Assembly (NCBI GenBank): GCA_011364985.1 | Contig: RDOC01000007.1 | Coordinates: 1,495 to 65,494 of the forward strand | Direction of reading: 5' to 3' | Source of the DNA: Candidatus Thorarchaeota archaeon | Lineage (GTDB): Archaea; Asgardarchaeota; Thorarchaeia; Thorarchaeales; Thorarchaeaceae | DNA length: 64,000 nt | Part shown: piece by piece, positions 1 to 28,814 of the stretch | Position numbering within the stretch: position 1 is the stretch's first letter | Layout of the letters: every line of letters starts with the position of its first letter | Translations under genes and position numbers: made by a program | The notes under the pieces: model-generated | What the model was told of the DNA's origin: nothing | The model's input: only the letters and a program-made list of their open reading frames with translations | The model's database searches: none

Positions 1-262
1 AAGCCGGGTGCAGGGAAAGCGGAACCACTCCAGTATATCCCCCAACTTCAATGAAAACTACAATCATCAGAAATATCTAGAAGGCCCATTTGACAACCGG
101 ATGATTTCTTTCCTCCACCGCAAATCTCTGATATAGTTCAAAGAGGAGTCTGTTTTAGCTGATTCACGCTACATCTTCAACGCCTCAATATTCACTACTG
201 ATATGGGCAAAAGCACCTTTCTGTTCTTGCACAAACATCCGTGGCATATGCCTTCTAAGGTA

Positions 263-350
263 GAGAGAAGTATTAGGCGGCGGTGAGATGAAGTATTGGG
301 GAAATACCCTTTTCATTTTGCTAAGCATCCTCATTCTGAAGCCAATTACT
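263..350 (+). repeat. Copy A of ~85-nt conserved intergenic element (GAGAGAAGT..CGGCGGTGAGAT..GGGGAAATAC..)
   Basis: Nucleotide-level similarity to 5884-5970 and 7147-7236. Shared blocks GAGA(G)AAGT, CGGyGrTGAGAy, GGGGAAmTA and CATTTy..GCATCCTC-like tail. Lies 3' of the convergent rSAM gene. Confidence 0.55.
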
Positions 351-352
351 GA

Positions 353-1822
353 CTAAAGGCAACTACTTCTCCCATCATTCTTCTCCAATTGCCTTTTCTT
401 GTCATCGTCGAGTTCTCCTCTTGCATAGGACAGCAGTTGCCCCCGCTGCCTCACGTTTCTTATGAAAAGTCCCATTCTATACCTGCTCTTCAAAGTCAGA
501 AGTATCTCTCTTGAGAGGTAACGCTTCCTATAGACGAACTTCTCATATGCATCTGAAATCAATCTTTCCAGTATGCCAGTCTGCACTGAATCAGGATGGA
601 TGTCTGATACGAGGACTCCTGTTTCCCAGTATGCCTCTGGGTCCAAATATCCTTGATTGACAAGCTGATTCCAGATATCAGTCCCGGTGACTGCTCCCAG
701 CATGTTCAGTTGAATGAAGTCAATGTCGAGTTTCATGGAGAAATCAATAGTATTCTTTACTTCTTTCACTGTTTCACCAGGTGCTCCAACAATGAATGTG
801 CCTAGAATGATGTCTACACCTGCCTTACGACACGTTTCTGCCGCCTGTATGCTCATCTGTGGAGTTATTCTCTTGCCATATAAATCAAGGATTCTCTGAT
901 TTGCGCTTTCAAACCCAAGATACATGAGTCTACAACCACTTTTGACCATTGATCTGATCGTATGGCTATCAACCTGGTCCACTCGTCCTTCGCAAAGCCA
1001 ACTGAACTCAAGTTTACGTTCCCTTATTAGGTCACAAATCTTTAGTATGCGCTTCCTGTTCATGGTGAAACAATCATCGACAAAGAAGATGGTCTTGAAG
1101 CCCTCTACTAAGAGGTTCTCAATCTCATCCACTACATTCTCAGGACTTCTAGAACGCCACTTTCTACCTGCAAATAGACTGCAACTACAGAATGTACATG
1201 AAAATGGACAACCCCTAGAAGAAACCATAGACGCCAAATTGGGCCATCGCAGTCCTTCAACCTGCCCATACCACTCAGTCTTGACCAAGTCCATTGCAGG
1301 AGGTGGCAAAGCGTCTAAATCGGTTATGAATCTTCTAGGGGCGCCTCTCTTCACAATCCCATTCTCCCGATGGTAGATACCGCTTACAGCCTTAATATGT
1401 CCCCCGCTCTCTAGTGCTCTAACAAGCTCAATCATGGATAACTCACCTTCGCCCGTTATGGTGGAATCGATTTGGGTGTACTTTTTCATCATACGTTCCA
1501 CGTTGAGTGTGGCATGCACTCCTCCAAACACGATATGAGTATCAGGAAGCCGTTTCCTTATCATGGCGGCCAGCTCTGCTGCCTTTGATGCTTGCCATGT
1601 CATCATTGATAAACCAACTACACCGGGTGAGTACCTCTCTACTCTTTTCAATAACCGTTCGTCTGACAGATGTTCTCCAATTTGATCAATGAGCGTGACT
1701 TCAACTCCAGCTTCGCGCAACGAAGATGCTATATAGAGAAGACCAAGCGGAGGACTGAATGTTGGAGTTGCGAATCTGGAGTTGATATAATCTGGAGCAG
1801 GGAATATGAGACAGACTTTCAC
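353..1822 (-). CDS. B12-binding domain radical SAM protein (class B rSAM, methyltransferase-like)
   Basis: 489 aa. N-terminal MKVCLIFP.. cobalamin-binding-like domain, then a CPFSCTFCSC (CxxxCxxC) radical SAM cluster motif. GTG start at 1822. Confidence 0.85.
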   Translation of the reverse strand: MKVCLIFPAPDYINSRFATPTFSPPLGLLYIASSLREAGVEVTLIDQIGEHLSDERLLKRVERYSPGVVGLSMMTWQASKAAELAAMIRKRLPDTHIVFGGVHATLNVERMMKKYTQIDSTITGEGELSMIELVRALESGGHIKAVSGIYHRENGIVKRGAPRRFITDLDALPPPAMDLVKTEWYGQVEGLRWPNLASMVSSRGCPFSCTFCSCSLFAGRKWRSRSPENVVDEIENLLVEGFKTIFFVDDCFTMNRKRILKICDLIRERKLEFSWLCEGRVDQVDSHTIRSMVKSGCRLMYLGFESANQRILDLYGKRITPQMSIQAAETCRKAGVDIILGTFIVGAPGETVKEVKNTIDFSMKLDIDFIQLNMLGAVTGTDIWNQLVNQGYLDPEAYWETGVLVSDIHPDSVQTGILERLISDAYEKFVYRKRYLSREILLTLKSRYRMGLFIRNVRQRGQLLSYARGELDDDKKRQLEKNDGRSSCL

Positions 1823-1983
1823 TTCCTAGATTCTGCCGCGGTTCAAGATAAACGCATCTATCCCCTGTCTAAGTAGGAGTAAGGGCGGTGGAGAGAGGGT
1901 ATTTGGGGGGCTTATCCTCCTCGTATTGCTGAGATGGTGGATTTCTTTTGTCTATCAGTCTTACAAATCTCGTAATATTATAA

Positions 1984-2040
1984 ATTTAAATAAAAGTATC
2001 AGGTAATATATGATGGAATCAGCATTCGCACGATGAGGTG
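1984..2040 (+). promoter_or_regulatory. AT-rich TATA-like box (TTTAAATAAAAG) and Shine-Dalgarno GAGGTGG upstream of SPASM rSAM gene
   Basis: TTTAAATAAAAG at ~1984-1995. GAGGTG at 2035-2040, 6 nt before the ATG at 2046. Region is divergent with the rSAM gene. Confidence 0.4.
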
Positions 2041-2045
2041 GGAAA

Positions 2046-3200
2046 ATGCTTGTGACTGTCACTCACGACGAAATAAGAAGGCGAATTGGGGAAAGAAACA
2101 GGAATCCCCAACAGCGTCCATATGCAGCTATAATGAAATCTGCTGACACATGTAATAATTCCTGTACCTACTGCTATGTTGAACCACACTCAACGGTTCC
2201 CATAATGACAAAAGAAACAGCTGAGATTGCAATTAGAACGATTCTTGAATATGTTGGTCCTAACAGGCAAGTGAACTTTATCTGGCATGGTGGCGAGCCG
2301 TTGCTAGCAGGATTACCTTTCTTTAAACACATTGCTGATGTGTGCGACGAGTATGTTGAGAACAGAATCGAGAATTCCATTCAGACAAATGGTACTCTCT
2401 TGAATGAGGAATTCTTGGAGTTATGCGTGAATAGACACATTCTGATAAGCCTCAGCATAGACGGACCAAAAGATATCCATGACCTCATGCGGAAAGACAA
2501 AGGAGGTCGCGGAACATTCTACCAGGTAATGGATGCAGTGGCAATGATTCGAAATGTTGGTCTTCCAGTTGGCTGTGTTACCGTACTTCACCAGCAGAAT
2601 CTTCATCACATCGAACGGATGTACAAGTTCTTCAGGGACAATGACATTAACTTCCGAATCAATCCCATAGTGAAATCGGGGCGGGCAACAAGAGCATACA
2701 ACGAGCTATCTATTACACCCAAGGAGTACGGCGAAGCAATGTGCAAGCTTTTTGATCTTTGGTTCGAAGAAGACGGCCCTATTCAAATAGAACCACTCGA
2801 AACAATAGTTGGCAACTTAATAGGACCAACTGTATGGGGTTGCGATTATCATGGAACCTGCCTGTTAAGCATCATTTCGGTCAACCCTGACGGCGGATTA
2901 TATCCGTGCGGAAGGTTTGCTGGTCTGGAGAACTTCAAGTTAGGGGATATCAATATTAATTCGGATTTCGAGGCTATGTTTGAATCCAGTCTTTTCAAGA
3001 GACTTTCATCGAGGAGTCCTTTGACAGTTTCTGGGTGTTCTGATTGCGAGTTTGTTGAAATCTGCAATACCGGATGCATGGTGACAGCTTTCATGGGAAG
3101 AAATAGGATTGAAGATCCTGACTACTACTGTTACGGACGGCGGATGCTGTTTTCGCATATCTTCAATGCTCTAATTGGACATTTGCGAGATGTCCAATAG
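2046..3200 (+). CDS. Radical SAM/SPASM-domain protein (anaerobic sulfatase-maturase-like peptide-modifying enzyme)
   Basis: CNNSCTYCY (Cx3Cx2C), GGEPLL, TNGTLL, SIDGP motifs. C-terminal Cys-rich SPASM region (CDYHGTC.., YPCGRFAG, CSDCEFVEICNTGCM). Confidence 0.85.
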   Translation: MLVTVTHDEIRRRIGERNRNPQQRPYAAIMKSADTCNNSCTYCYVEPHSTVPIMTKETAEIAIRTILEYVGPNRQVNFIWHGGEPLLAGLPFFKHIADVCDEYVENRIENSIQTNGTLLNEEFLELCVNRHILISLSIDGPKDIHDLMRKDKGGRGTFYQVMDAVAMIRNVGLPVGCVTVLHQQNLHHIERMYKFFRDNDINFRINPIVKSGRATRAYNELSITPKEYGEAMCKLFDLWFEEDGPIQIEPLETIVGNLIGPTVWGCDYHGTCLLSIISVNPDGGLYPCGRFAGLENFKLGDININSDFEAMFESSLFKRLSSRSPLTVSGCSDCEFVEICNTGCMVTAFMGRNRIEDPDYYCYGRRMLFSHIFNALIGHLRDVQ

Positions 3201-3228
3201 ACAATGAGTGAATGGATGAGTGAATAAT

Positions 3229-3438
3229 ATGGGAAAAGTGAAGAAAGAGAATATTATTGAAGTACTAGGTGAGAATGTGAAGACCGAAGACCTGAAGTCA
3301 TCAGTACAGAGGATTATTGGCCATAGGCGCTTTAAGGGACCTATCGAGTTCGAGCTACGGCTTTCTGAGGAAGACAAGAAGCGTCATGATCCAACAACTA
3401 GCTATTACAACGTCTACCGGTATGCTTTCTTCGATTGA
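3229..3438 (+). CDS. Small protein (69 aa from ATG) with aromatic-rich C-terminus ..TTSYYNVYRYAFFD; candidate precursor peptide
   Basis: ORF immediately 3' of the SPASM gene on the same strand. Protein-like composition (K/E-rich). The track start at 3220 is GTG; first ATG is at 3229. Confidence 0.35.
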   Translation: MGKVKKENIIEVLGENVKTEDLKSSVQRIIGHRRFKGPIEFELRLSEEDKKRHDPTTSYYNVYRYAFFD

Positions 3439-3607
3439 GCCTAGCGTATGGGATAATGAAACGGATAATCTGAAGAAGGAAACACGAGAAACAGATGCAA
3501 TTATCTGGATTCGTATGCCGAAGAGCTTTCAGATTGATTCAGTGCGAAAGCTTGGTCTTGAGATGGATGTATGCCTTGACGATACCTGTACTTGTGCTCC
3601 TACCTAA
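3422..3607 (+). CDS. Small ORF (62 aa from ATG 3422, or 30 aa from ATG 3515) with Cys-rich C-terminus ..EMDVCLDDTCTCAPT
   Basis: Downstream half of track ORF 3317..3607. Only this part has protein-like composition. Overlaps the previous ORF's last 17 nt in another frame. No clear SD. Confidence 0.2.
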   Translation: MLSSIEPSVWDNETDNLKKETRETDAIIWIRMPKSFQIDSVRKLGLEMDVCLDDTCTCAPT

Positions 3608-3846
3608 ACTAAGGGTACTGGTTTAGTGATATAAAACCCAAAAGGAATCAATCTTAAAGAACTACTGAGAAGAGATGGATTCATGCCAAGGGTGGAGTGC
3701 TTTGGATACACATGCAATGCCTAGGTTGAATCGGATTCAAGGCAAGTGGAAGACTTCGAAGTATACCGACAAGATTGAGCTTAGCTGCTTTCTCTGTCAA
3801 GAGATAGCTCGAAATGGAGGCAGCTGGAGTGGCGGTGCAAAAGGAA

Positions 3847-4200
3847 CTAATTTGACGGATCATATCTGACCTGTGCTAATGAGTTTAGATCATTCAGGTC
3901 TTTTCTGACGCCTCCCATCAGTTCTCTCTCGGTGACTTTGAGTTTTGTCCTATAAGCCGATTCATCTGCAATGGATTGCATGATGAGTACATGAGGTAAA
4001 TCATTATCGGACTCGAAAAGGATTGTCTGATGGTTCTCTTCATTTTCAACGTTTGTACTCGCGATGATACTACCATTCAATTCTCCTATCCTTGTAATTG
4101 GTATAGCAGGTGTCACACACACGTAAGGGAAACTCTGGTCTTGTACATTGTAGTTGAGGAGATTGAACTCCATCATGGTCAAACTGCAACTTATTTCCAC
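3847..4200 (-). CDS. Hypothetical protein (117 aa, GTG start), overlaps 3' end of next gene in another frame
   Basis: ORF-track only. The frame stays open upstream of the GTG. Could be a frame-shifted continuation of 4070..4534 or a spurious call. Confidence 0.15.
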   Translation of the reverse strand: MEISCSLTMMEFNLLNYNVQDQSFPYVCVTPAIPITRIGELNGSIIASTNVENEENHQTILFESDNDLPHVLIMQSIADESAYRTKLKVTERELMGGVRKDLNDLNSLAQVRYDPSN

Positions 4201-4534
4201 ATATATTGCATCTGTAAAGAGCTTCGATTCTGAACTTGATTTCTTGAGATGGACAACTGTACACCTTCACATTGCGCTTTGAACTGCCCAGTTCTCTCAT
4301 ATCTCCAAGGGCTCGCATGGAGTGCAATATAGGATACATTCCAATAAGACTCTCTGTGCAAATGCCTTCTGGAGATCTCCAACTGAATTCAAATTCCTGC
4401 CCCACTCTATGGTTGGCACGACAATTTCCCTCATCGACAACTGTGACTCTAAATGCAACTGCTTCCTCCCAAATATCACGAAGTCTTAGTAGCAGATCCT
4501 TCTCAGATTGATTCCTTGTAGTCATTACTACCAC
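4070..4534 (-). CDS. TIGR04076-like protein with C-terminal CxxC..CxxC zinc ribbon
   Basis: RVTVVDEGNCRANHRVGQEFEF..PEGICTESL..YP..CPSQEIKFRIE matches the remembered TIGR04076 pattern (C..H.G.EF..P.G.C..CP...F.I.R). C-terminal RCNICGN..CDTCY. Confidence 0.5.
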   Translation of the reverse strand: MVVMTTRNQSEKDLLLRLRDIWEEAVAFRVTVVDEGNCRANHRVGQEFEFSWRSPEGICTESLIGMYPILHSMRALGDMRELGSSKRNVKVYSCPSQEIKFRIEALYRCNICGNKLQFDHDGVQSPQLQCTRPEFPLRVCDTCYTNYKDRRIEW

Positions 4535-4882
4535 CCATTACTGCTAGGTAATCATCGATATTATCTCTTCTCTCCTCTCATATCAGAGTATGAGAAGAGA
4601 ATTCTGTCACCTGATTCTGCTAGTATACAATTTCTCATGGTTCAAGGAGTCTACAAGACCGCTTTCTCTTTTATTAGCAACCAAGAAATTGGGAAATGGT
4701 CAAGTCTCTCTTTCTTTATATTCTTGCATAGATGTTTGAGGACGCATTCAATTCATTACAAGGTCATCTTGCTGAGAGCCCCTTTTGTCTTTGAGATTTG
4801 ACCTCAGATTTGATTCAATTGGAAATGCACCATCAGCTGTTCCATCATCCTTTTTAGTAGGATTCTTTCACTCCGCATCGAA

Positions 4883-5866
4883 ATGCTACCCGACCCTGTG
4901 ATTTGGCTTGTTCTCTTTATAGCAAGTTATATTGCAATCTACTCTCTGGCTGATTTCATAATTGATACTTTGGGGGATATTAGCGAATCCTTTTGCATAG
5001 CTCCCATAGTATTGGGACTGCTTCTTCTCGGAATTGACTTGGAAGAAAGCATTGTTTCATTAATCGCAGCAGTTGACGGTCTTGCTTACTTGTCATTGGG
5101 TAATCTCATTGGAAACACAGTGATAGCGATTGGGATTGCATTTGGATTGCCTGCGCTCTATCTCAAGGCAGAGATCGACCAGCTCCCGCGATTCTACTAT
5201 GCTGAGCTAATCGTTGCCGGGATATTTGTCCTGATTTCAATGATTCTAACAGATTATCTGTTTGTCTTTGGCCTTTTGAGCATCATCCTCTTTGCTGCTC
5301 ATCTGGCGTACACATATCGAACACAAAGGGCGTTTCAATCAACAAGGGTGCATACTGTAATAGACACGCCAAAATCTGACTTGGACAGTGAAATAGATGC
5401 CCAAGCGACCAAGCATGATCGTACGTGGGCGGGATCCAAACTGCTGTTGGCACTCCTTGTCGTATTCTTGGCTGCTGAAGTCTTGGTGACCAGTGCCGAG
5501 GAACTTGTTCTTCTAACGGGATTGAATGAATCTTTCTTTGGATTGATTATTATGGCGGCTGTGACAAATGTTGAGGAATTCTGGTTGGTTGTCAAATCAA
5601 TTCAAAAGGGCCATGTTGCATTGGGTGTGAGTGCGCAGGTTGGCAAGATACTCTGGAATACCACCTTGATCTTTGGACTCTGCAGCCTGTTGCTAGTTCA
5701 ATTCAGATTTGAGATAGTAATGTTGCTGAGCTCAATTCTTTCTCTCTTTGCGCTGGTGTTATTGGCAGTGAATCTCTCTCAGAATCGATTGTCAAGGGCA
5801 GCTGGTATTGGCTATACCACAATTCTAGTAGCTTTCCTGATTATGAACTCGTTCTTTGCTTTCTGA
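4883..5866 (+). CDS. Ca2+/Na+ antiporter (CaCA family) membrane protein
   Basis: 327 aa polytopic protein with two alpha-repeat-like segments (GNLIGNTV.. and AAVTNVEEF..) and an acidic loop between the halves. Confidence 0.65.
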   Translation: MLPDPVIWLVLFIASYIAIYSLADFIIDTLGDISESFCIAPIVLGLLLLGIDLEESIVSLIAAVDGLAYLSLGNLIGNTVIAIGIAFGLPALYLKAEIDQLPRFYYAELIVAGIFVLISMILTDYLFVFGLLSIILFAAHLAYTYRTQRAFQSTRVHTVIDTPKSDLDSEIDAQATKHDRTWAGSKLLLALLVVFLAAEVLVTSAEELVLLTGLNESFFGLIIMAAVTNVEEFWLVVKSIQKGHVALGVSAQVGKILWNTTLIFGLCSLLLVQFRFEIVMLLSSILSLFALVLLAVNLSQNRLSRAAGIGYTTILVAFLIMNSFFAF

Positions 5867-5883
5867 CACGCAAACCAAGAAGC

Positions 5884-5970
5884 GAGAGAAGTAGAGACGG
5901 CGGTGAGATAGAGCACTCGGGGAACTAGTCCTCCCACATTTCTGAGCGTCCTCTCATCTTTCATTAGACC
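5884..5970 (+). repeat. Copy B of ~85-nt conserved intergenic element
   Basis: GAGAGAAGTAGAGACGGCGGTGAGATAGAGCACTCGGGGAACTAGTCC.. starts 18 nt after the TGA of the CaCA gene. Aligns to copies A and C. Confidence 0.55.
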
Positions 5971-5991
5971 ATCTCGAATGGCCTGCAATGG

Positions 5992-7140
5992 ATGAAATGG
6001 CTAATCTTTCTAACTAATCGCATTTTCGTTTTATTCACAGTCAGATACTTGGATGAGAAGACTGAAAATAGACCAAGCAGTGACATTGTCATGCCAATTG
6101 AGTTCCATCCTATGGGAGCCAAGGTTCTCATATCACATTTACGAAGAGTGCATGACGGGAGCCCTCTATCGGAGCGGGAGATCAATGATATACTAGAACA
6201 ACCGGATATTTATCTCTGGATTTCAGTCTATGATGAATGGATGAAGGGATCTAAATCCGAATTTAGAGATATTCTTTGTTCATTGCACAAAGATTCCATG
6301 AATGACTTGAGTAAATGGGGACAACATATCAATCAAGGACTGAGAAATTCCCTATCCAGGCTTGACGAGCTTGAGCAAGCATTGAACCATCTGACGCGCT
6401 ATGACTGGGGGCTGGCTGCATCAAACACCCTTCAATTCCTCCCCAAAGACACCCCCCTTAATGCTCACGTAATAATGACAATTGATGGCTTTAATGGAGG
6501 TATGTTCCATGATGACAATATGTTTCTCTCTCTAACGATCATAGGTCCGGATACCATGAGCCCTCAGTATTTCACACATGAATTTCATCATATTGGATTG
6601 GGATATTGGTGGGAACGGAACCCTGTCGTCAAGAAATTTGGGCAAGAAAAGGCCTCACGAGAGGCTTGGTTGTTGCGTTTGTACCATTATATGGTCAGTG
6701 AAGGCCTTGCTAACGCATTCTGTTCTCCAGCCATGTTGAGCCAAACTGAACATGACGATGAACAAAATCGAAAACACAACAAGATCATCAGAGAATACGA
6801 CTCACAATTCAATGAGATCTTGTATTCGCTGGAAACCATCCTTGAACAGATTATTGGGCATAGCAATCCCGAAATAACCGAACAATATGAGGAGTTCTCA
6901 CTTGACATGAAAACCCACTACTTGCCCAAGGGCCATTTTCTTTCAGGTAGGATGATTCAAATAATGGATGAATCACCAGCAGTTTCACGTGAAGAAATCA
7001 TCGATCTTGTGAGGGAGCCATTCAGATTCTTTCAATTATACAACCGGGCTGCAAGAGATCGGGGGCATAGGGAAGTTTCCAGGCCTCTTCTTGATTCAGT
7101 CGAAGGAGCAATTCGTTCCATGAAGAAGAACGTCAATTAA
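5992..7140 (+). CDS. Hypothetical protein with HExxH motif (putative zinc metallopeptidase-like)
   Basis: HEFHHIG motif, then a downstream EGLANAF segment. True start may be the ATG at ~6091 (MPIEFHP..). Confidence 0.4.
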   Translation: MKWLIFLTNRIFVLFTVRYLDEKTENRPSSDIVMPIEFHPMGAKVLISHLRRVHDGSPLSEREINDILEQPDIYLWISVYDEWMKGSKSEFRDILCSLHKDSMNDLSKWGQHINQGLRNSLSRLDELEQALNHLTRYDWGLAASNTLQFLPKDTPLNAHVIMTIDGFNGGMFHDDNMFLSLTIIGPDTMSPQYFTHEFHHIGLGYWWERNPVVKKFGQEKASREAWLLRLYHYMVSEGLANAFCSPAMLSQTEHDDEQNRKHNKIIREYDSQFNEILYSLETILEQIIGHSNPEITEQYEEFSLDMKTHYLPKGHFLSGRMIQIMDESPAVSREEIIDLVREPFRFFQLYNRAARDRGHREVSRPLLDSVEGAIRSMKKNVN

Positions 7141-7146
7141 ATGGGT

Positions 7147-7236
7147 GCTGAGAAGTGGAGCTGTCGATGAGACGGAGTGCTGGGGAAATACGTTTCTCAT
7201 ATTGCAGAGCACCCATTTCCCTTTTCGGTAGCTGGG
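7147..7236 (+). repeat. Copy C of ~85-nt conserved intergenic element
   Basis: GAGAAGTGGAGCTGTCGATGAGACGGAGTGCTGGGGAAATACG.. starts 7 nt after the TAA at 7140. Contains the GTGCT..AGCAC and GGGAAAT..ATTTCCC inverted repeats. Confidence 0.55.
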
Positions 7237-7430
7237 CAGATTCCCCATGAATGAATCGTATATGAAAGAAGTTCCCACTAGATACTTTGGAAAGGAGCTT
7301 CAATGCCTCATCATATTTCTGCTTCTTGCAATCTTCATAGGTATTTTCCTCTGAATTTCGATGTTGATGGCTCGAGCACCACAATAGTATTCCTGTTCAC
7401 CCGGAGGGAAGACGGATCTCTTCTGCCTTG

Positions 7431-9074
7431 CTAGTTGTCTATTCTGGAGATCTTCAGTGCTCCGGCAAGAAGGACCAAGGGTCCGACAACCAAAATGGGT
7501 GCGATGGCAACGAGCATTCCAAGAATGACATTCTTGAAGAAGATGTCAGTTCTAAATTCGATTACAAAACCGAGTATAATTGCAAACAGGGATATAACTA
7601 GTGTAGCAATGGTATTTGTGTGGAATGCTGAGCTCTTTATGTCTTCGTATGCTGGGTTCATGGCTGTGAGCCCAATTCCAATGAGTATTGTGTTGCATAG
7701 AACGAGATATGCATGTAATACCATAATACCGCCATCAACAATGGGCAGCGAGAGGACCATAGCAAGAATGAGAGCAGGACTTATTGCCATCGGGATTGCA
7801 AAGAAGAACGCACCAATGATTCTGGCTGCTAAGAATCTTGATATTCCTCGGGGTGCACACTTGATAATCCAAAGATGATCCTTTGATTCCAGGAAACCAA
7901 CTCCCCCAAATGTTACTCCTCCTGTAATTCCAAGTATCATACCAACGAAAAATGATGTGTACATGAGTATCTGAATTGGGTCCTGAATGCTCGTGAGACC
8001 TGAGTAGCTTCCCATAACCGGCACTATAATTGACAGAGATGTGCCATAGATTATTTTCGAAGTGTTCTGCGCCTTTCTGCCAAAGTCTTTCAGCATCGTG
8101 ACAATAAGGGCTCCGAGAGAACCCGGCGCGGCCCGCCTGATTGCACGAAGAACTAAATTCTCTTCTCCTACCGTGGTGACTGTTTCTGTTCGAACTCCTG
8201 CCTCAAAGCTGAAAATCCTATCTGGAGTCACTACTCCAAGAATCAAGACCACCGCGGCAAAAAGGCCGATCAAAACGAGGTCTGACTCAATCCCAAGTTC
8301 AAGAATCCCCTCAAAAACAGTAACAGCCTCAGATGGCAGATTTACTCCATTGAAATAGATGGTTATCCACGTAATTGAATCTGCTGCCCATGTAGATGGC
8401 AACAACAGGAAGCCATTGAGTCCCAATAGCTGAGCAAACGTTTCTGCGAAGTACAAGAGGCCATAGAGGGGTAATAAGAATACAAGTACAATAATGATGC
8501 CCATTGCTTTTGCAATATCATTTCCACGTGGAGAATCTCCAAGTCTTGCCTGAATTGCAGTACTGATGACGGTTGAGAGTAAGAGCGTGGTCAGAACAAA
8601 GACTGCAATGATCACGTAGGCAGTTATTTGTCCAAGGATGGATACTTCATAGAAGATAATGAATGGTGAAATCAAAAGGGGCGCCATAAAGAGGACGAGC
8701 AGGCTGTAAGATGGAATCTTTGCTAGGAATATCCCGAATAGCATGTCACGGGTTCTTACGTTGTTGCTTAGTATAATCTCCCACTGACCTATTCTTACCT
8801 CTTGCAGAGAATAGGAGATCGGATAAATCAGCACCATAGTCCATAAGATAAGAATGACAGCTCTCATTACTCCGGGATAGGTCGCTTGCAGGACTTGTTG
8901 AATTTGGGTTGAGAATAAGTCTAGAAATCCACTCATTATCCGAGGTGCTATGAAGAAAGCCCATGCTAGCCCAATTATGAATAATAGTAGCAAAACATGC
9001 AATCTTTTCTTTCTGAACCTCGCGGTTGTGACACGGAACTCAGTTTTCGCAATAATAGCCCAAGCCCTTACCAT
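7431..9074 (-). CDS. Large polytopic membrane protein (possibly ABC-2-like permease, two membrane halves separated by a soluble loop)
   Basis: 547 aa, many hydrophobic segments, central soluble region. No adjacent ATPase. Confidence 0.45.
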   Translation of the reverse strand: MVRAWAIIAKTEFRVTTARFRKKRLHVLLLLFIIGLAWAFFIAPRIMSGFLDLFSTQIQQVLQATYPGVMRAVILILWTMVLIYPISYSLQEVRIGQWEIILSNNVRTRDMLFGIFLAKIPSYSLLVLFMAPLLISPFIIFYEVSILGQITAYVIIAVFVLTTLLLSTVISTAIQARLGDSPRGNDIAKAMGIIIVLVFLLPLYGLLYFAETFAQLLGLNGFLLLPSTWAADSITWITIYFNGVNLPSEAVTVFEGILELGIESDLVLIGLFAAVVLILGVVTPDRIFSFEAGVRTETVTTVGEENLVLRAIRRAAPGSLGALIVTMLKDFGRKAQNTSKIIYGTSLSIIVPVMGSYSGLTSIQDPIQILMYTSFFVGMILGITGGVTFGGVGFLESKDHLWIIKCAPRGISRFLAARIIGAFFFAIPMAISPALILAMVLSLPIVDGGIMVLHAYLVLCNTILIGIGLTAMNPAYEDIKSSAFHTNTIATLVISLFAIILGFVIEFRTDIFFKNVILGMLVAIAPILVVGPLVLLAGALKISRIDN

Positions 9075-11453: not shown

Positions 11454-12215
11454 CTAGAACTCATGCCTACGGAATCGCCAGATTGCAAGCAACATTAGTA
11501 CAGCTAGCACAAGCAGTGATGTGACCACTGGGGTGATTGAATAGATGTCTTCTCCGACCAAGCTAAGCGATACTTGTAAAAGGCCCCAAGGGCCGAATTG
11601 ACCAAGATCTGGATGTTGACCAAGGTTGATTCCTATGAAGATGAATAGAAACGGTACAGCCATGACCGGACCTGGATCATCAAAGAACGTTCCCGCACAC
11701 AGTGTCAAAAAAACGAGGAACATCTGCCAGAGTGCCATTGGCACCAGAGAGAGAAGATAAATCAGGAAATTCGGTGGGAGGCCAAGTAGAAGGGTTTCTA
11801 GGTAGACAGCGAGCCCCGGAAACAATACCATTGAGAACGAAACACCCAGAGAAAGCCCCAAGAACTTAGGGATTATGAATGCCTCTCTCGATACTGGTTT
11901 TGAGAGTACCCATGCCGCGGATCCCGACCGTTTCTCCTCAAGAATCGTTTCATGCGAGATGATTATGGTGGCAATTGATGGAAAAATCGTAGCCATCATA
12001 TAGAATATGGCCAGACCTGTGTCTGGATCAGAGATTCCCACAGAGCCAAACATTCCCAGTATAAGGCTCCATAGTAGGCCTTGCTGCCACCAGAACGGAG
12101 AACCAAACCATGCCTTTAGTTCCTTCTTCATCAGAACAGTGAATCCCATTCTCCATCCTCTCTCTGTGGTTGGCTCGAATGAATCTTTAGCAATCATTGC
12201 TATGGTCCTCCACAA
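11454..12215 (-). CDS. ABC-2 family transporter permease
   Basis: 253 aa polytopic. Immediately downstream of the ABC ATPase, overlapping it by 29 nt. Confidence 0.6.
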   Translation of the reverse strand: MWRTIAMIAKDSFEPTTERGWRMGFTVLMKKELKAWFGSPFWWQQGLLWSLILGMFGSVGISDPDTGLAIFYMMATIFPSIATIIISHETILEEKRSGSAAWVLSKPVSREAFIIPKFLGLSLGVSFSMVLFPGLAVYLETLLLGLPPNFLIYLLSLVPMALWQMFLVFLTLCAGTFFDDPGPVMAVPFLFIFIGINLGQHPDLGQFGPWGLLQVSLSLVGEDIYSITPVVTSLLVLAVLMLLAIWRFRRHEF

Positions 12216-13149
12216 GTTTCATGAAAATTTCTTCAAGCTCATACTGCTTGAGACCAAAGTCAAGAACATCAACCTCTTCATCGGCTAGCACCGTTCTGAG
12301 AAGTTGTTTTCTTGCCATAGAGTCATCATTGACGTCTACGACCCAATGAGTTCGGTTTCGTTCTTCTCTCTCCGAGATGCCCGTGACCCATGGTTCAGCT
12401 GAAAGTTTCTTGTAAGCCTCTTGAGTATCGCCCTCAAGTACGAGGATATAGGCCATTCCTTCGCTTCCCGCAAGGAGTTCTTCAATAGGGGCCTGAGCAA
12501 TTAGGTTACCCTTGTTCAAAATCGCCACTCTGTCACTCACTCGCTGTACATCGTCAAGGATGTGGGTGCTGTAGAATATGGTCGATTCCGACCGAAGGGA
12601 TTCCATTATCTTCAGCACTTTCTCTCGTCCTTCGGGGTCTAGTCCTGCAGCTGGCTCATCCAGAATCAGCAACTCGGGAAAATTGATCTGTGCCTGCGCA
12701 ATCCCCAACCGTTGCATCTCGCCGCCGGAAAATCCTTCGATTGGTCGGTCTGCCTTGTCCTCCAAGTCAACGATTCGCAGGAGATGCTCAATTCTTTCCT
12801 CAATCTTGTCCTCCGGTCCTTTAAAGAATAGGCGCGCAGCGAACCTCATGGTTTCACGGGCACTCAGCTCCTTGTAGAATCTGGGATGTTGCGCAAGATA
12901 TCCAATCCTTCTTCTGACCTCATCATTGTCACCAATCACACTTCGACCAAGGACGTTTGCACCACCGGCTGTAGGATGTGTGAGACCGAGCAGAAGTTTG
13001 ATGGTCGTTGTCTTCCCAGCTCCATTTGGCCCTAAGAAGGCGAAAATCGAATTCTTGGGAACCTTGAGATTCAGCTGGTTCAGTGCAAGTACATCACCAT
13101 ATCTCTTGGTTAAGTTGTCTGTTTCAATGACATACGCTTGGGAATGCAT
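12187..13149 (-). CDS. ABC transporter ATP-binding protein (with ~90 aa C-terminal extension)
   Basis: Walker A GPNGAGKTT, signature LSGGEMQRLGIAQA, Walker B LILDEP. Start probably M18 (MHSQAYVIE..); the track ORF extends to 13200. Confidence 0.9.
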   Translation of the reverse strand: MHSQAYVIETDNLTKRYGDVLALNQLNLKVPKNSIFAFLGPNGAGKTTTIKLLLGLTHPTAGGANVLGRSVIGDNDEVRRRIGYLAQHPRFYKELSARETMRFAARLFFKGPEDKIEERIEHLLRIVDLEDKADRPIEGFSGGEMQRLGIAQAQINFPELLILDEPAAGLDPEGREKVLKIMESLRSESTIFYSTHILDDVQRVSDRVAILNKGNLIAQAPIEELLAGSEGMAYILVLEGDTQEAYKKLSAEPWVTGISEREERNRTHWVVDVNDDSMARKQLLRTVLADEEVDVLDFGLKQYELEEIFMKLVEDHSNDC

Positions 13150-13460
13150 TGTCCGTTCTCCTAGTCTTCTATTGAGTTGGTCATCGACTCCATCACACAA
13201 TATAAATCAGCTGAGCAAGGATGAAGATATCAAGGCCCAGCCCCGTCAGATTATCCATGCAATTATTGCATCTTTACTCAAATCATGGGGCTTTGTAATT
13301 CATATGAGGAGTATAATAGGTGCTTTGTATGGAAGAAGAATTAAGTGGCGCCATTTATAGCATGAATTGATTATACATACTGCATTTTGAGCATCCCTTT
13401 GATGTAACAGCAAATGAATGGAAACTAACAGGTGCTGAGTTAGTCCGTTCAATCAGGCTG

Positions 13461-18158: not shown

Positions 18159-19481
18159 TCATCTGCAGGTCTCGTTAGTAGGTTCTTTTAGTATCATATT
18201 CCAAGTACTCAGTGCTCTCTTCTTTTCCTCTATCACAGGGTCCCTTGCTCTCATCAAGGCAAAACCTGCTGCAATGAGCAAGGCTGCAGCCAATACAAAA
18301 GGAAGCGCACCAATGAGACCTGAATGAGAAACGCCTTCAACTGGCGTCGCAGTAAGGTCTGCCAAGAAACCGAGCAAGATTGGACCAGTAACAAATCCCA
18401 TGTCACTAATCATACGATAGAGGCCCATTGACACCTCAAGTTTGTCTTGTGGCGACACATCCGTTACGTATGCAGCTATTGGTCCTGATAGTCCTGTTGC
18501 TGCTCCGTACATCGCCATTACTGCTGTGAAACCGAACATGTCCATCGAGAACGGAATGAGTGTTGTAACAGCAGCAATCGCAAGCAGGCAGAGTATCAGA
18601 GGATTTCTCCTTCCGATTCTATCTGAGATAGTCCCCATAGGAATCATTGTGATAGCCGTTGTTACCCCTGCAACTGTAAGGATTATACCTATCCTAGTTG
18701 AGTCCAAACTTAGATTATTGCCAGCATAGAGTGGGACAAGGGTACTTCGTACTCCGGTCCTGATGAAGAATAGAGTGAATGTTGCGAATGTCGCAAGAAG
18801 AAATGAAGGGGCAGATAGAATCTGCCACACATCACTGAAGATTGATTTTGGCTTGAAGTCTAAAGAAACATACTCGGAGCTTGTTATGTTGGGTAATACT
18901 AGAGTTGGAACGACTCCGAATCCCGAAACCAGCGCATAGGCAAAGAATGGAGCGTGGATGTCATAGATACCAGCAATCAGACCGCCAAATGTGGGTCCGA
19001 AGATGCTTCCGAGGAGAAGCATACCCATGTATAAGCTCATCCATTGCCCACGCTTTTCTTTTCCAGAGATTTGGGCCAGAAACACTGTGGCAGCAGTAAC
19101 ATACATAGCGGACCCTACTCCCTCTATCATTCGGGCAATGACTAAGACGCTGTAATTGGGAGCAATACCGGCCAGTATAGACGATAATAGAATCAGTGTC
19201 AAACCGGTAATCATGATCTTCTTCTTGTTGAACTTCCTTGAGAGAAGACCTGCTGGCACATCAAGAACCATTCTTGTAACGGCAAAGGCAGAGATGACAA
19301 AACCGACCAACGTGTACGAAACTTGGAAGCTCTCTGCGTAATCAGGAAGAATTGGTGCTACCATATTCAAGCCCAGCAGCACTAAGAATGTCACCAGTGA
19401 GAGATTCAATACTGTCCAGATGTTTCCGTCCATTTCTGGATTTTCCATATTCCCGTTGTTAGGCTCGCTTCGGTCTTCCAA
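18159..19481 (-). CDS. MFS transporter
   Basis: 440 aa, 12 predicted TM segments, MFS-like loop motifs (GxLxDRxGRR-like RIGRRNP). Confidence 0.8.
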   Translation of the reverse strand: MEDRSEPNNGNMENPEMDGNIWTVLNLSLVTFLVLLGLNMVAPILPDYAESFQVSYTLVGFVISAFAVTRMVLDVPAGLLSRKFNKKKIMITGLTLILLSSILAGIAPNYSVLVIARMIEGVGSAMYVTAATVFLAQISGKEKRGQWMSLYMGMLLLGSIFGPTFGGLIAGIYDIHAPFFAYALVSGFGVVPTLVLPNITSSEYVSLDFKPKSIFSDVWQILSAPSFLLATFATFTLFFIRTGVRSTLVPLYAGNNLSLDSTRIGIILTVAGVTTAITMIPMGTISDRIGRRNPLILCLLAIAAVTTLIPFSMDMFGFTAVMAMYGAATGLSGPIAAYVTDVSPQDKLEVSMGLYRMISDMGFVTGPILLGFLADLTATPVEGVSHSGLIGALPFVLAAALLIAAGFALMRARDPVIEEKKRALSTWNMILKEPTNETCR

Positions 19482-21201: not shown

Positions 21202-22695
21202 TTATCGGTTCAGCTTCTCAAGTTGTTTCAGGGTCCACAAGCCCCTCTCGGTCAATGCGTAGTAGCTTCTTTGTCGCCTCTGATATGTTTGCTCTATCCG
21301 AGTGCTCTTGATTAGCCCGCTACTAGTCAGTTCAGAAAGATGCTGGTATACACTTGGAATTTTGATGCATATTCTGTACTCATCCATTAGTTCTCTCCAA
21401 ATTCCGTACCCATAAGATTCGCCCTCAGAGAGAACTTCAAGAATTCGCATTTTAGTTTGACCCAGTTTGGTAGTGACTCTCCTGCCCTCTACTCTACTAA
21501 GAAGACGTTCCAGCTCTCTTCTGCCTTTAACAAACGTCCTAGCAATGTCGGGATATTTGAGCCCCATTCCAGTTATTGCACATACGACACTCTGGTCTTG
21601 ACTAATCTTCCCCAAAAGAACTAGCCTTTTCAGAGCCGCGATTGTCGTAGCTGAAGCTGGTTCGGCAAAGACCCCTTCCCGTCTAGCTAGTTGTTTGACC
21701 GCATCCAGAATCTCCCTATCAGACACAGAAATTGCTAGTCCATTTGATTCTGCGATTGCTCTTAGCGCAGTGTGCCCACAGAGAGGGCTCTTCACACTGA
21801 TATCATAAGCTATTGTCGATTCGGATGTTGCAGGAGAAACCGTTCTTTCTCCTTTCTCGAAGGCCTCAACGATGGGAGCACAACCGCTAGCCTGTGCGCC
21901 TACGATTCTGGTATGACAAACGTCTATCATCCCAATGGTTTGTAGTTCGATCAATCCTTTCCAAATCATCGATATGTGTCCTCCATTTCCCATAGGGGCA
22001 ATAATCCAGTCTGGGGAAGTCCAGTCTAGCTGTTCACATATCTCATAGACTGTTGTCTTTTCTCCCTCCATAAAATGCGGATTGGAGGAGGCGACGCAGT
22101 GGCTCATCTTGCCTTCTTGTCGAGCTCTTGCTAAGGCCTCATCATGGTCCTTGACAATCTCTACATCAGCGGCATAGGCTAGAATCTGATAGAACTTGCC
22201 TATGTCCACATTTCCCGTCTGCCCTATGAACACCTTGCTCTTAAGACCTGCACGGGCAGCATAGGCAACAAGAGATGCGGCAAGATTTCCCGTGGACCCA
22301 CAACAGACAGAAGCAATTCTGTGTTCTTTGGCTGCAGAGATCTCTACTGCTGTTCCTCGGTCAATAAAGGCTCCAGTTGGATTGGTGGTCTCATCCTTGA
22401 GGAACAGTTCGTCAAGTTCAAGGTCCTTTGCGAGTCCATCGCACTTATGAAGGTACGTCCCTCCTTCTCCTAGAGATATAATGTTGGTCTCGCTTCGGAC
22501 TGGAAGCAGATCGAGATACTTCCAAACACCGGGTCTACGACCTCTTAATCTCCTTGATGTGAAATGACTCTTCGCTCTCTCAAGATCATAGACTACCTCC
22601 AAGGCTCCTCCACATTGTACGCAGGAACTTCGATGGGTTTCCGAGTCATAGACTGACCCACATACCGTACATGTGAAACCAGTTTGGAGAAACAT
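21202..22695 (-). CDS. Threonine-synthase-like PLP-fold protein with N-terminal Zn ribbon and C-terminal PadR-type wHTH domain; canonical PLP lysine replaced (GAFIDRG)
   Basis: CTVCGS..CVQCGG ribbon. LKDETTNPTGAFIDRG..CGSTGN aligns to ThrC NPTGSFKDRG but has I at the Lys position. C-terminal RILEVLSEGESYGYGI..YYALTERG matches the PadR family. Confidence 0.8.
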   Translation of the reverse strand: MFLQTGFTCTVCGSVYDSETHRSSCVQCGGALEVVYDLERAKSHFTSRRLRGRRPGVWKYLDLLPVRSETNIISLGEGGTYLHKCDGLAKDLELDELFLKDETTNPTGAFIDRGTAVEISAAKEHRIASVCCGSTGNLAASLVAYAARAGLKSKVFIGQTGNVDIGKFYQILAYAADVEIVKDHDEALARARQEGKMSHCVASSNPHFMEGEKTTVYEICEQLDWTSPDWIIAPMGNGGHISMIWKGLIELQTIGMIDVCHTRIVGAQASGCAPIVEAFEKGERTVSPATSESTIAYDISVKSPLCGHTALRAIAESNGLAISVSDREILDAVKQLARREGVFAEPASATTIAALKRLVLLGKISQDQSVVCAITGMGLKYPDIARTFVKGRRELERLLSRVEGRRVTTKLGQTKMRILEVLSEGESYGYGIWRELMDEYRICIKIPSVYQHLSELTSSGLIKSTRIEQTYQRRQRSYYALTERGLWTLKQLEKLNR

Positions 22696-26633: not shown

Positions 26634-28814
26634 CTAGTTTCCTTTATGAAGTCGTTTGTGCAAGTGATTGAACGAAATAACTCCCTTCTTACTTATGTTC
26701 AAATCCAATTCTCTCTCAAGTTGCTTCATTGCACCTGCGAACCAATCGTATTGGATATTGCTACTTGATGCAATTCTAAGTATATTTCCAATGAATCTTA
26801 TGACTGCTTCTTTTCTGGTTCGTGCCATGTTGCTATCGAGGGCAAACCGTAAGGCACGTTCCAAAAGCTGAGCCGGAGTTGAGAGAGAAGTCAATATGTC
26901 CAGTCTTGGCTTACAAAACAACACGAGATCCATGTCAAGAGTGTCTTTCTGTCGAATATGCGGGTTCATCTTGTACTCGCTGTTAACTGGGAATGAAGTG
27001 TTGATTGAGAAACCGCTTTCTCTTAATGCACACAGAATCGCCCACCATGCCTGCAATTTGGAGTGATGGAACGTGAACGCTAGAGTTCCTTCTTCCTTTA
27101 GCACTCTTCGGCACTCTTTGAAGACAGAGACCATAATCTGTTGGTATTTTTTGCTATCCTTACCCATTCCTAAATTTACTACTGCCTCGTTCTCAGGTGA
27201 AACATACTTCTCTTCAAAATACTCGTTCTCAATCAGCAATCTTAGCCAAACGTAGAAGAAATTGGAAAGTTCTGAGTAGTGAACATTGTCAAAATACGGC
27301 GGATCTGTGATTACCAAGTCAACGGAATTGTCAGGAATCTCCGGCACATGCGATGAATCACGACAGAATAGCATGGCGCCTCGCTTTTCCTTGGTGAGAT
27401 GCTGGAAAGTGTCTACAAATTTAGCTTCTATCCTCTCTGTAGGAGTGAAGACTGTACGAATGCGGCCACTTGCATCCTTGTACTTCTCAAAAGGTCTCCG
27501 ACAATACAGCTTCGCTTTGAGATACCGCTGATAGCAGTTAACAAAGGTCCCAGCACCCATATTCGCAGATCCCCAGAAGGAGTTCTCTACCGGTGTTGTT
27601 GTCAGAGGAAATGAGTGATATGTGAACAGATGGTGAAGCTTTCTGTGCGGATAGTTGTAGGGTGTCATCATGTTATTATACTCAAGGCTATTTGACAAAA
27701 TGGTTACGAAAGCATCTCTATACTCATATGATGTTTTTCCAAGAGACTGCTCAACGAAGTTCAATGCAAGAAGCTGGCGTGAACTGAATATCTGAGAATA
27801 GTATCTATATCCGTGTGTTCGCCATCGTCTAGACGAAGACCCCTTAGGAATGCTCTGATGAGGCAGTGTCATGTCTTCCTTCGTTTCTCGAAATTGTCTT
27901 TCGATTTCCTTGATTCTGGAATAGTCCTTAGAATCAGGTGACTTGTAGAGTCGTTTCTTACAACTGGGACACCAATATTCAATCGCAACAATCCTTTCAG
28001 TCATCAGTCGGCTGTTTCCTGCTACTTCAGCAAGCTTCTGCCCTGCTTCGCCGCAATTTGGACAGCAGAACCTTCCGTGGTCGAACGTCCCCTTCATGGG
28101 ATCAAATTCAGCATTGCAGGCGTTGCACGTACAGATTCCGCTCCCCTCCCATGTGTTCAAACTAAAGCAATTGGCGCAAAAGATGGATGCCTTGTTTTCC
28201 TCAGATATAGGCTTGTTTCTTTTCAATCCCTTATTCAGGAGAGTTCTCTTGTAAAGGGGCACTTGCTTGCTGCACTTGGGACAGATGATCTCTCTAATCC
28301 AAAATACATGGAGTCCTTCGCAGTTCTTTCTTCCACATACAACGCAGTCTGTCCGATATATTTCCCGAATGCTTTCCCCAACTGTTTCATTCAGATTGTC
28401 GAAGATGGATGAAAGCTGCTGCAGATCAATGGGTCTAAGGCTTTCGCGTACAATCCAATATGAAACAGGATTTATATCACAGCCTATTACCTTCGCTCCA
28501 AGCCGATTCGCCTCAACGAGAGTTGTTCCTCCTCCCATGAACGGATCGAACACAATGAGACGTTCGAGATTGGGCGGGTGAAAGTACTTACTGGATTCCA
28601 GCAAGCCTCCGGTTTCATCGATTTCGAAGAGACCATCGTCTAATCCTGCAGCCAGCAGTATGATAGACCGGAATTGCGCTCCTGACCTTCTGGCCCACCA
28701 TTTATGCAGCGAATAAACTGGTCGATAGTGTTGACGCTTTCCAGACTCATCCTGTGCAAGCTTACTGATTGTCCTCTCAATCAATGACTTGAACGGTTGC
28801 CTATTTCTTTTCAT
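26634..28814 (-). CDS. DNA (N6-adenine/N4-cytosine) methyltransferase with internal Zn ribbons, DUF1156-like N-terminus
   Basis: N-terminal ..LHKWWARRSGAQFR.. Motif I VFDPFMGGGTTLVEA. Central CPKC..CANC..CTCNAC..CPNC ribbons. Motif IV DLVITDPPYFDNVHY. Confidence 0.75.
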   Translation of the reverse strand: MKRNRQPFKSLIERTISKLAQDESGKRQHYRPVYSLHKWWARRSGAQFRSIILLAAGLDDGLFEIDETGGLLESSKYFHPPNLERLIVFDPFMGGGTTLVEANRLGAKVIGCDINPVSYWIVRESLRPIDLQQLSSIFDNLNETVGESIREIYRTDCVVCGRKNCEGLHVFWIREIICPKCSKQVPLYKRTLLNKGLKRNKPISEENKASIFCANCFSLNTWEGSGICTCNACNAEFDPMKGTFDHGRFCCPNCGEAGQKLAEVAGNSRLMTERIVAIEYWCPSCKKRLYKSPDSKDYSRIKEIERQFRETKEDMTLPHQSIPKGSSSRRWRTHGYRYYSQIFSSRQLLALNFVEQSLGKTSYEYRDAFVTILSNSLEYNNMMTPYNYPHRKLHHLFTYHSFPLTTTPVENSFWGSANMGAGTFVNCYQRYLKAKLYCRRPFEKYKDASGRIRTVFTPTERIEAKFVDTFQHLTKEKRGAMLFCRDSSHVPEIPDNSVDLVITDPPYFDNVHYSELSNFFYVWLRLLIENEYFEEKYVSPENEAVVNLGMGKDSKKYQQIMVSVFKECRRVLKEEGTLAFTFHHSKLQAWWAILCALRESGFSINTSFPVNSEYKMNPHIRQKDTLDMDLVLFCKPRLDILTSLSTPAQLLERALRFALDSNMARTRKEAVIRFIGNILRIASSSNIQYDWFAGAMKQLERELDLNISKKGVISFNHLHKRLHKGN

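Follow-up and report, generated by a model that had tools for sequence, protein, structure and literature searches.

A repeat resembling the 16S rRNA trailer punctuates an array of accessory genes in Candidatus Thorarchaeota and related Asgard archaea

A repeat of about 85–90 nt, designated E (consensus ACCTTCTAAGGTAGAGAGAAGTGTAGGCGGCGGTGAGATAGAGTATTGGGGAAATGCCCTTCTCACATTGCTGAGCACCCTTTCATTTT), was analyzed in a 64-kb stretch of DNA, hereafter the window, from a metagenome-assembled genome (MAG) of Candidatus Thorarchaeota. The window has ordinary chromosomal content, including genes for seryl-tRNA synthetase, transketolase, and transporters; its G+C content is 45%, and the composition is unbroken at the repeats. 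An 8.8-kb Logan contig (L001) carries the same DNA as the window and reaches to the left of the window start. Immediately to the left of the window, a gene encodes a protein with 100% identity to the hypothetical protein EAX81_06850 of Candidatus Thorarchaeota. Four full copies of E, namely A, D, B, and C in this order, are present in the window, all on the plus strand and with accessory genes between them (Table 1).

An intergenic family of about 85 nt with copies A, B, and C had been proposed from a sequence-only reading of this DNA, and the family is real: the quoted sequences lie where they had been placed, the three copies align collinearly with small indels, and a profile built from them recovered all three from the window with E-values of 2e-26 to 4e-23. 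The count of three was too low. The three-copy profile gave a weak fourth match at 1878–1933 (E-value 0.09), and a family profile, in which the three-copy profile was joined with copies from other genomes, recovered this match as copy D, together with a partial copy further along. Both profiles agreed with the sequence-only reading that the other 57 kb of the window contains no further copy. The conservation was also found to be at the nucleotide level, as proposed, because A, B, and C, when read by eye, have differing frames with internal stops; coding for a small peptide was rejected on the same inspection.

The copies were described as sitting just 3′ of stop codons, which holds for B and C and fails for A and D. 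Copy B begins about 5–12 nt past the stop codon of the Na+/Ca2+ exchanger gene (5866), and the interval of about 130 nt between its end and the probable start of the DUF5700 gene (about 6092) contains a TATA-like box. Copy C overlaps the stop codon of the DUF5700 gene (7138–7140) and is followed by a convergent gene for a 547-aa protein. No plus-strand gene was found upstream of copy A, the best-preserved E in the window, whose 3′ end is 13–18 nt from the stop codon (353–355) of the convergent B12/radical-SAM gene. Copy D sits between divergent radical-SAM genes, after the start of the minus-strand gene and about 110 nt upstream of the start at 2046, with an AT-rich TATA-like box between the repeat and this start. 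The partial copy at 4764–4784, located 99 nt upstream of the Na+/Ca2+ exchanger gene, is tentatively regarded as the remnant of a junction repeat, since its position and extent resemble those of clearer remnants of the 3′ third at L001 1220–1254 and at 6776–6802 and 2484–2521 in relative T (see below).

Table 1. Copies of E and genes at the array of the window (window coordinates unless a contig is named), and order of repeats and cassettes in the arrays compared. Cassettes are given in parentheses.
Feature	Coordinates	Strand	Evidence and remarks
Partial copy of E, CTCATTGCTGAGCACACTCTCATTTT	L001 1220–1254, about 240–275 nt left of window start	+	Clearer than the partial copy at 4764–4784
Copy A (E_A)	252–340	+	nhmmer family profile 252–335, E-value 1.8e-21
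B12-binding radical-SAM enzyme	353–1822	−	Pfam PF02310, PF04055; cargo A–D, reversed relative to the repeats
Copy D (E_D)	1862–1935	+	nhmmer family profile, E-value 1.8e-12; full-length but diverged
Radical-SAM/SPASM enzyme	2046–3200	+	Pfam; cargo between D and partial copy 4764–4784
Three small open reading frames	3220–3869	+	Cargo between D and partial copy 4764–4784
TIGR04076-family protein	4070–4534	−	NCBIfam; cargo between D and partial copy 4764–4784
Partial copy of E, 3′ third only (CATCTTGCTGAGAGCCCC...)	4764–4784	+	Weak match, profile positions 58–83, E-value about 1
Na+/Ca2+ exchanger family protein	4883–5866	+	Pfam PF01699; cargo between partial copy and B
Copy B (E_B)	5878–5960	+	nhmmer family profile, E-value 6e-18
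DUF5700 putative Zn peptidase, EAX81_06900	5992–7140	+	Pfam PF18958; cargo B–C
Copy C (E_C)	7138–7222	+	nhmmer family profile, E-value 5e-18; last copy in array
Array of the window			Partial E - (small reversed open reading frame) - A - (B12/radical-SAM, reversed) - D - (radical-SAM/SPASM, small open reading frames, TIGR04076) - partial E - (Na/Ca exchanger) - B - (DUF5700 peptidase) - C - non-array DNA
Array of relative P			16S - E - (362-aa gene, reversed; GNAT) - E - (M24 peptidase) - E - (SBF transporter, orf98) - E - (Y, about 250 nt) - weak E - (ABC transporter genes and DUF1801, reversed) - degenerate 16S 3′ end and E - (MFS, reversed)
Array of relative H			16S - E - (253-aa gene) - E - (SBF, orf98) - backbone
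Array of relative T			E - (186 aa) - E - (AAT) - partial E - (three genes) - E - (Y) - E - (M24) - partial E - (two genes) - diverged E - (CODH-type gene and others, reversed) - E - (211 aa, reversed) - E remnant - (SBF, orf98) - backbone

A degenerate 20-base pattern of E was scanned against one representative genome per GTDB species. Three Asgard MAG contigs matched (JBHLRP010000015.1, JBHLLF010000021.1, and JBHLPF010000020.1), each several times, and two bacterial matches were presumably due to chance. The relatives carrying these contigs were designated P, T, and H (pieces L002–L008), and for the comparison of the arrays all contigs were oriented so that E reads forward. The MAGs are labeled Thorarchaeota, Hermodarchaeota, and Promethearchaeota. 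Their genes share 87–92% nucleotide identity over several kb, and at the 16S 3′ end, which was recovered for two of the relatives, the identity is 97.5%. The identity across genes makes the three MAGs close relatives of each other, and therefore at least two of the taxon labels must be wrong or inconsistent. The window organism is more distant from them, with 73.6% DNA identity over 1.7 kb of a pair of ABC transporter genes and 82% protein identity for the ATPase.

With the profile, six to eight full or partial copies of E were detected per contig in P and T, compared with two in the remaining contig. The copies matching the pattern lie on a single contig per genome and in a single orientation per contig. 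A further five copies, located on three short contigs, came from a metagenome scan. Thus, with more than 20 copies in related Asgard MAGs and metagenomes, the family is conserved beyond the window. Two sequence subtypes, GTAGAGG and GTGTAGG, are mixed within each genome, several partial copies retain only positions about 50–88 of the hidden Markov model (HMM), and the point at which homology begins on the 5′ side differs among copies by up to about 12 nt. In addition, a deletion variant at L014 1759–1811 lacks the segment between two GAGAG motifs, so that GGTAGAGAGAG is followed directly by TAATGGGG; it looks like the product of slippage or recombination between short internal direct repeats.

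In two of the relatives, E begins 12 nt past the 3′ end of the 16S rRNA gene, which was located with the Rfam model SSU_rRNA_archaea at L006 272 and L004 527 (matches at L006 272–1773 and L004 527–711). The DNA downstream of 16S consists of the repeat array and protein genes, with no 23S rRNA gene. Several homologous contigs end at the 16S leader (L027 and L028); therefore, this region breaks assemblies. In archaea, the pre-16S processing stem is formed by an inverted repeat of leader and trailer and is cut by the splicing endonuclease EndA. When 200 nt upstream and 130 nt downstream of 16S in L006 were cofolded, the E core (GAAGTGTAGGCG ... CACATTGCTGAGC; E positions 28–86) paired with the 16S leader over about 60 nt in nine intermolecular helices, including 12- and 13-bp stems. 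The interaction energy (ddG) was −21.9 kcal/mol, compared with −6.5 ± 2.6 kcal/mol for 200 dinucleotide shuffles of E (z = −5.9). The same leader is conserved in one further relative. Because E stands directly after 16S and shows extended pairing to the leader, E in the relatives is the 3′ strand of the pre-16S rRNA processing stem. With regard to the canonical bulge-helix-bulge motif for EndA, the cofold permits only a relaxed arrangement at mid-duplex, with a 2-nt leader bulge, a 4-bp helix, and a UGA bulge on the E strand. An Rfam tRNA match over 105 nt was obtained at L006 4613–4717 (+), some 3 kb upstream of 16S, and this length suggests an intron-containing tRNA gene.

Copy A showed 86–88% identity to the true trailers of the relatives by blastn (E-values of 1e-20 to 1e-21). 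When all four window copies were compared with these trailers, the identities were 82–83% for A, 74–78% for B, 75% for C, and 58% for D, whereas the window copies share only 48–70% with each other. The divergence is therefore star-like, which fits decay from a conserved master copy. No rRNA gene was found by Rfam beside the orphan copies, including the four in the window, which was searched as a whole. An inverted-repeat search and a duplex scan detected no leader-like partner near the orphans, and a search with the real leader detected no dispersed leader copies. Judging from this homology, the window copies would be orphan paralogues of the 16S trailer without a leader partner, and the window organism's own 16S trailer is probably E-like as well. 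The most distal copy in P (L008 536–620) carries about 43 nt of a degenerate 16S 3′ end (L008 621–667), and L008 539–664 aligns with the E, spacer, and 43-nt 16S 3′ end of L006 178–314 at 78–79% identity over 137 nt. This remnant is retained in the L008 copy only, all others starting inside E, and is the signature expected of a past insertion at the 16S 3′ end or trailer with target duplication.

The copies of E are spaced 0.3–3.7 kb apart, and the one to three genes between them, in either orientation, are unrelated accessory genes such as those for peptidases, transporters, GNAT proteins, and radical-SAM enzymes. The orientation of E is constant along an array irrespective of that of the cargo. 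Co-oriented open reading frames (ORFs) stop 0–40 nt before E in all eight cases, and reversed ORFs end 18–63 nt past E in six of seven, the exception ending 209 nt past copy C. The next co-oriented ORF usually begins 70–230 nt after E, with an AT-rich TATA-like box between them. Blocks of homology among P, T, and H begin and end at copies of E, and the order of the modules is permuted: M24, SBF, and Y in P; Y and M24, with SBF further on, in T; and a single cassette before SBF in H. Furthermore, the copy at T 5236–5321 is chimeric. Its left and middle parts match the P segment running from Y into the weak E, and its right part matches the P segment from the second E into M24, with the switch inside E at about HMM position 55–60. 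This E is demonstrably a recombinant of two others. No integrase, recombinase, or transposase domain was detected with Pfam, NCBIfam, and PHROGs in the window ORFs tested or at the array loci, including flanks of 8–20 kb. Two scans of viral contigs for a donor of E (attP) gave zero matches or chance matches in a coding region, and no virus or plasmid bearing E was found.

The possibility of an RNA family was examined by searches and folding. No Rfam match was obtained at gathering thresholds in the whole window, and with Rfam 15 at E-values up to 10 nothing overlapped the copies in window 1–9000, including C/D-box sRNAs and riboswitches. Sub-threshold matches to the archaeal C/D-box sRNAs sR41 and sR14 (E-values of 4–6) were seen at 7294–7342 (−), between copy C and the gene for the 547-aa protein, and are probably due to chance. 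A C/D-box or K-turn reading of GUGAGA...CUGAGC was rejected, as the boxes misfit the consensus and have no Rfam support. The RNA folds of single copies were for most no better than those of shuffles (z = −1.3 to +1.0), and the DNA folds of typical copies gave z = +0.8 to −0.3 on both strands. RNAalifold on 20 copies gave −9.7 kcal/mol with a covariation term of −0.04 and double changes in 2 of 16 pairs. These results speak against the small noncoding RNA family or structured 3′-untranslated-region (3′-UTR) motif suggested earlier. The nested inverted repeats reported for copy C are private to it rather than family-wide. In copy C alone, an 11-bp closing stem is formed by the 5′ flank AAATGGGTGCT and the 3′ conserved block AGCACCCATTT (window 7135–7235); its DNA fold gave z = −2.4, and no other copy shows such a signal. 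In effect, copy C thereby supplies its own nearby partner to the segment whose counterpart in the true trailer pairs with the leader.

With regard to the surroundings of the array, a conserved Thorarchaeota protein gene abuts it about 100 nt left of the leftmost remnant, and the homologous loci of this gene in other Thorarchaeota contain no E. Likewise, homologues in other Asgard genomes of three genes, namely the backbone gene, the one preceding 16S, and the DUF5700 gene, were found with no E beside them. That the array may be a lineage-specific insertion is counted in support of the interpretation given below. The first 12 genes of the window have no homologues in the arrays of the relatives, and the window genes that are homologous to their cargo (ABC transporter, AAT, and MFS) lie only beyond copy C; the ABC-2 permease/ATPase pair (11454–13200) and the MFS gene (18159–19481) have no flanking repeat there. 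The head-to-head radical-SAM genes, the small ORFs, and the gene for the TIGR04076 protein (353–4534) span two repeat-bounded cassettes and together look like a peptide-modification gene set, resembling those for ribosomally synthesized and post-translationally modified peptides (RiPPs). The 382-aa DUF5700 ORF was probably called too long: its homologues have 335–357 aa and cover 87–91% of it, and an ATG at about 6092 fits as the real start. Elsewhere in the window, a 726-aa protein with DUF1156 and N6/N4 DNA methylase domains (26634–28814, −) may be part of a restriction or defense system in a variable region, and a pyridoxal-phosphate-dependent enzyme (PALP) domain is fused to a C-terminal PadR-type transcription regulator domain at 21202–22695 (−). 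No tRNA gene was found in the window.

We consider it somewhat better than an even chance that copies A–D, as orphan paralogues of the 16S trailer, serve or have served as the junction repeats of a single-locus cassette array. On the best reading, these junction repeats are both the scars and the substrates of recombination-driven gain and shuffling of cassettes. DNA with an E-like segment would recombine with a resident E, originally the 16S trailer, and such an event would leave E duplicated and add a cassette of one to three genes, promoter included, in either of the two orientations. Subsequent recombination between copies of E would delete, permute, or exchange cassettes, and orphan copies would decay unless gene conversion homogenized them against the master trailer. 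Insertion may have proceeded via circular intermediates, and we lean, though not firmly, toward homologous (RadA-type) rather than site-specific exchange since no recombinase is linked to the arrays. The stop codons in the 5′ end of E and its T-rich tail would then be used only incidentally by upstream ORFs.

Several points weigh against this interpretation. The link between copies A–D and the window organism's trailer rests on homology to the relatives, and the window array is not adjacent to 16S, a conserved protein gene sitting there instead. The evidence for shuffling covers three closely related genomes only, in 8-kb pieces. As agent or donor of the insertion, neither a recombinase in the window ORFs tested and the loci searched nor a virus or plasmid bearing E was found. 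In addition, selection for a function at 3′ ends could account just as well for the T-rich tail and for the stop codons being so tightly coupled to E. In that case, E RNA would be a terminator of transcription or a stabilizer of the 3′-UTR, composed of a weak internal hairpin and oligo-U; it would play the same role at the end of the unlinked 16S unit, and the array would be a set of genes that acquired this terminator. The short distance to E of every co-oriented upstream ORF and the separate spacer with TATA-like boxes before the next one are consistent with such a module, as are the end of the consensus in CCCTTTCATTTT, with a tract of at least four T in 12 of 20 tails, and a weak hairpin, GCGG-UGAGA/UCUCA-UUGC, compatible with most copies. 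The 16S gene of the relatives precedes protein genes, and therefore a terminator would be needed there. However, the orientation of E follows the array and not the neighboring gene, and copies A and D as well as those at L003 3013–3099, L002 4249–4335, and L008 536–620 have no co-oriented ORF before them. The folds are similar to those of shuffles with a covariation term of about 0, some orphans have decayed to 44–58% identity (D and L003_2765), and neither the confinement to one locus nor the recombinant copy is explained by this reading. We therefore judge a 3′-end module unlikely as the explanation of the family; a terminator-type side role of the T-rich tail is possible. An origin of the same kind combined with a complete lack of present activity was also weighed. 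E would then be the scar of old duplications or insertions beside 16S that have since moved, and the shuffling would represent ordinary indels. The star-like divergence with strong decay of some copies, the location of the window array away from 16S, and the lack of a detected recombinase agree with inert relics, which share the origin of the preferred explanation and differ from it in current activity only. On the other hand, the cassette order is permuted between genomes that have diverged by only 8–13%, and one E is chimeric. Moreover, many orphans are 90–98% identical to the trailer compared with 87–92% for the flanking genes, which points to ongoing exchange or conversion. Inert relics thus appear improbable.

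The remaining alternatives assign to E a dedicated recombination site or an RNA acting in trans. An integron-like site akin to attC/attI, with a recombinase encoded elsewhere and a crossover near the junction of GGGGAAATGCCC and TTCTCAC, would account for co-oriented repeats in one array per genome, for short cassettes with the repeat tight behind the ORF, and for breakpoints that recur, since partial copies start at HMM positions 50–63 and the chimera switches within about the same region (55–60). It also agrees with the reported enrichment of integrons in Asgard archaea (PMC9668308). Against this, E lacks an attC-type palindrome and R''/R' motifs and does not fold into a single-strand hairpin (z about 0 for either strand), neither a tyrosine nor a serine recombinase turned up among the window ORFs tested or within the 8–20 kb flanks, the 5′ boundary of homology is not fixed between copies, and breakpoints are few. 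An integron-like system of this kind is consequently regarded as quite unlikely. Still less can be said for the idea that orphan E in the 3′ ends of mRNAs pairs with the pre-16S leader, either as a decoy or as an in-trans bulge-helix-bulge substrate, so that mRNAs are coupled to rRNA processing, or for its variant, an independent family of small-RNA genes. About 60 nt of E are complementary to the leader, some orphans in P and T are predicted to pair with it as well as the true trailer does (ddG of −17 to −26), and the relaxed bulge, 4-bp helix, and bulge can, in our reading, be drawn in mid-duplex. However, no evidence of separate promoters for E was found, there is neither an Rfam match nor structural covariation, substitutions in orphans preserve the leader pair in about 44% of cases, which is the level that transitions alone would give by chance, and decayed orphans pair no better than shuffles. 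We hold a trans-acting role to be highly improbable.

Beyond the junction-repeat interpretation, a more far-reaching proposal is conceivable and, taken jointly, doubtful: the array might be an undescribed gene-capture platform, integron-like in form, in which the repeat is the 3′ strand of the pre-16S stem and the array is anchored and seeded at 16S, serviced either by a remote recombinase that prefers to cross over near GGGGAAATGCCC/TTCTCAC or through homologous recombination involving circular cassettes. The orphan repeats in mRNA 3′ ends might then additionally pair with the rRNA leader. If the junction-repeat interpretation is true, part of the signal for rRNA maturation has been recruited, or at any rate reused, as the homology by which accessory genes are collected and reshuffled at a single locus. 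Gene flux in the archaeal lineage closest to eukaryotes would then have a further mechanism, one that differs from classical integrons as well as from integrative elements targeting tRNA genes. The unlinked state of 16S in these MAGs, and the variable DNA behind it that breaks assemblies, would also become easier to understand. For annotation, it serves as a warning that a conserved "intergenic RNA motif" close to a 3′ end may be a paralogue of an rRNA flank and not a new noncoding RNA family.

Among known systems, the archaeal pre-16S processing stem is matched by the E of the relatives, which lies immediately 3′ of 16S and forms a long imperfect helix with the leader. In contrast, all copies in the window, like most of those in the relatives, are orphans with neither an rRNA gene nor a leader partner nearby. 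To our knowledge, multiple dispersed trailer strands are not part of any described pathway of rRNA maturation. The arrays also resemble islands at the 3′ ends of tRNA and transfer-messenger RNA (tmRNA) genes with att direct repeats, in that co-oriented repeats of the 3′ flank of a stable RNA bound variable accessory genes, and in that a distal repeat, in one copy (L008 621–667), keeps a degenerate 3′ end of the RNA gene. They differ from such islands because the anchor is the 16S rRNA trailer, the modules consist of one to three genes, many repeats occur per array, and no integrase gene was found at the edge of an E array in the sequences examined.

Short, non-coding, intergenic repeats that often lie just after genes are likewise typical of the REP/BIME, ERIC, and MITE families, and an element of the MITE or REP type had been among the identities suggested for E. 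However, E has no palindrome, terminal inverted repeats, or target-site duplication and occupies a single locus per genome instead of being dispersed; no inverted partner or terminal inverted repeat was found for it, and its boundaries of homology vary without duplications. The suggestion was accordingly abandoned. Integrons with classical folded attC sites have been reported to be enriched in Asgard archaea (PMC9668308). Like integron arrays, the arrays described here occur once per genome, with co-oriented repeats, with E close after the stop codon of an ORF, with accessory cargo, and with cassette content that differs between close relatives. Unlike attC, E is a conserved sequence without an imperfect palindrome or single-strand hairpin, and inspection of its consensus revealed no RYYYAAC or GTTRRRY (R''/R') ends. 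Furthermore, no IntI-type tyrosine recombinase was found by the E arrays, and the cassettes have their own promoter regions and are often reversed. E does not constitute a new RNA family, and both of its components, the processing stem of an rRNA and a variable gene array bounded by repeats, are of known kinds. What is new, relative to the literature searched, in which such repeats are not described, is a repeat derived from an rRNA trailer that bounds shuffled cassettes in an Asgard archaeon.

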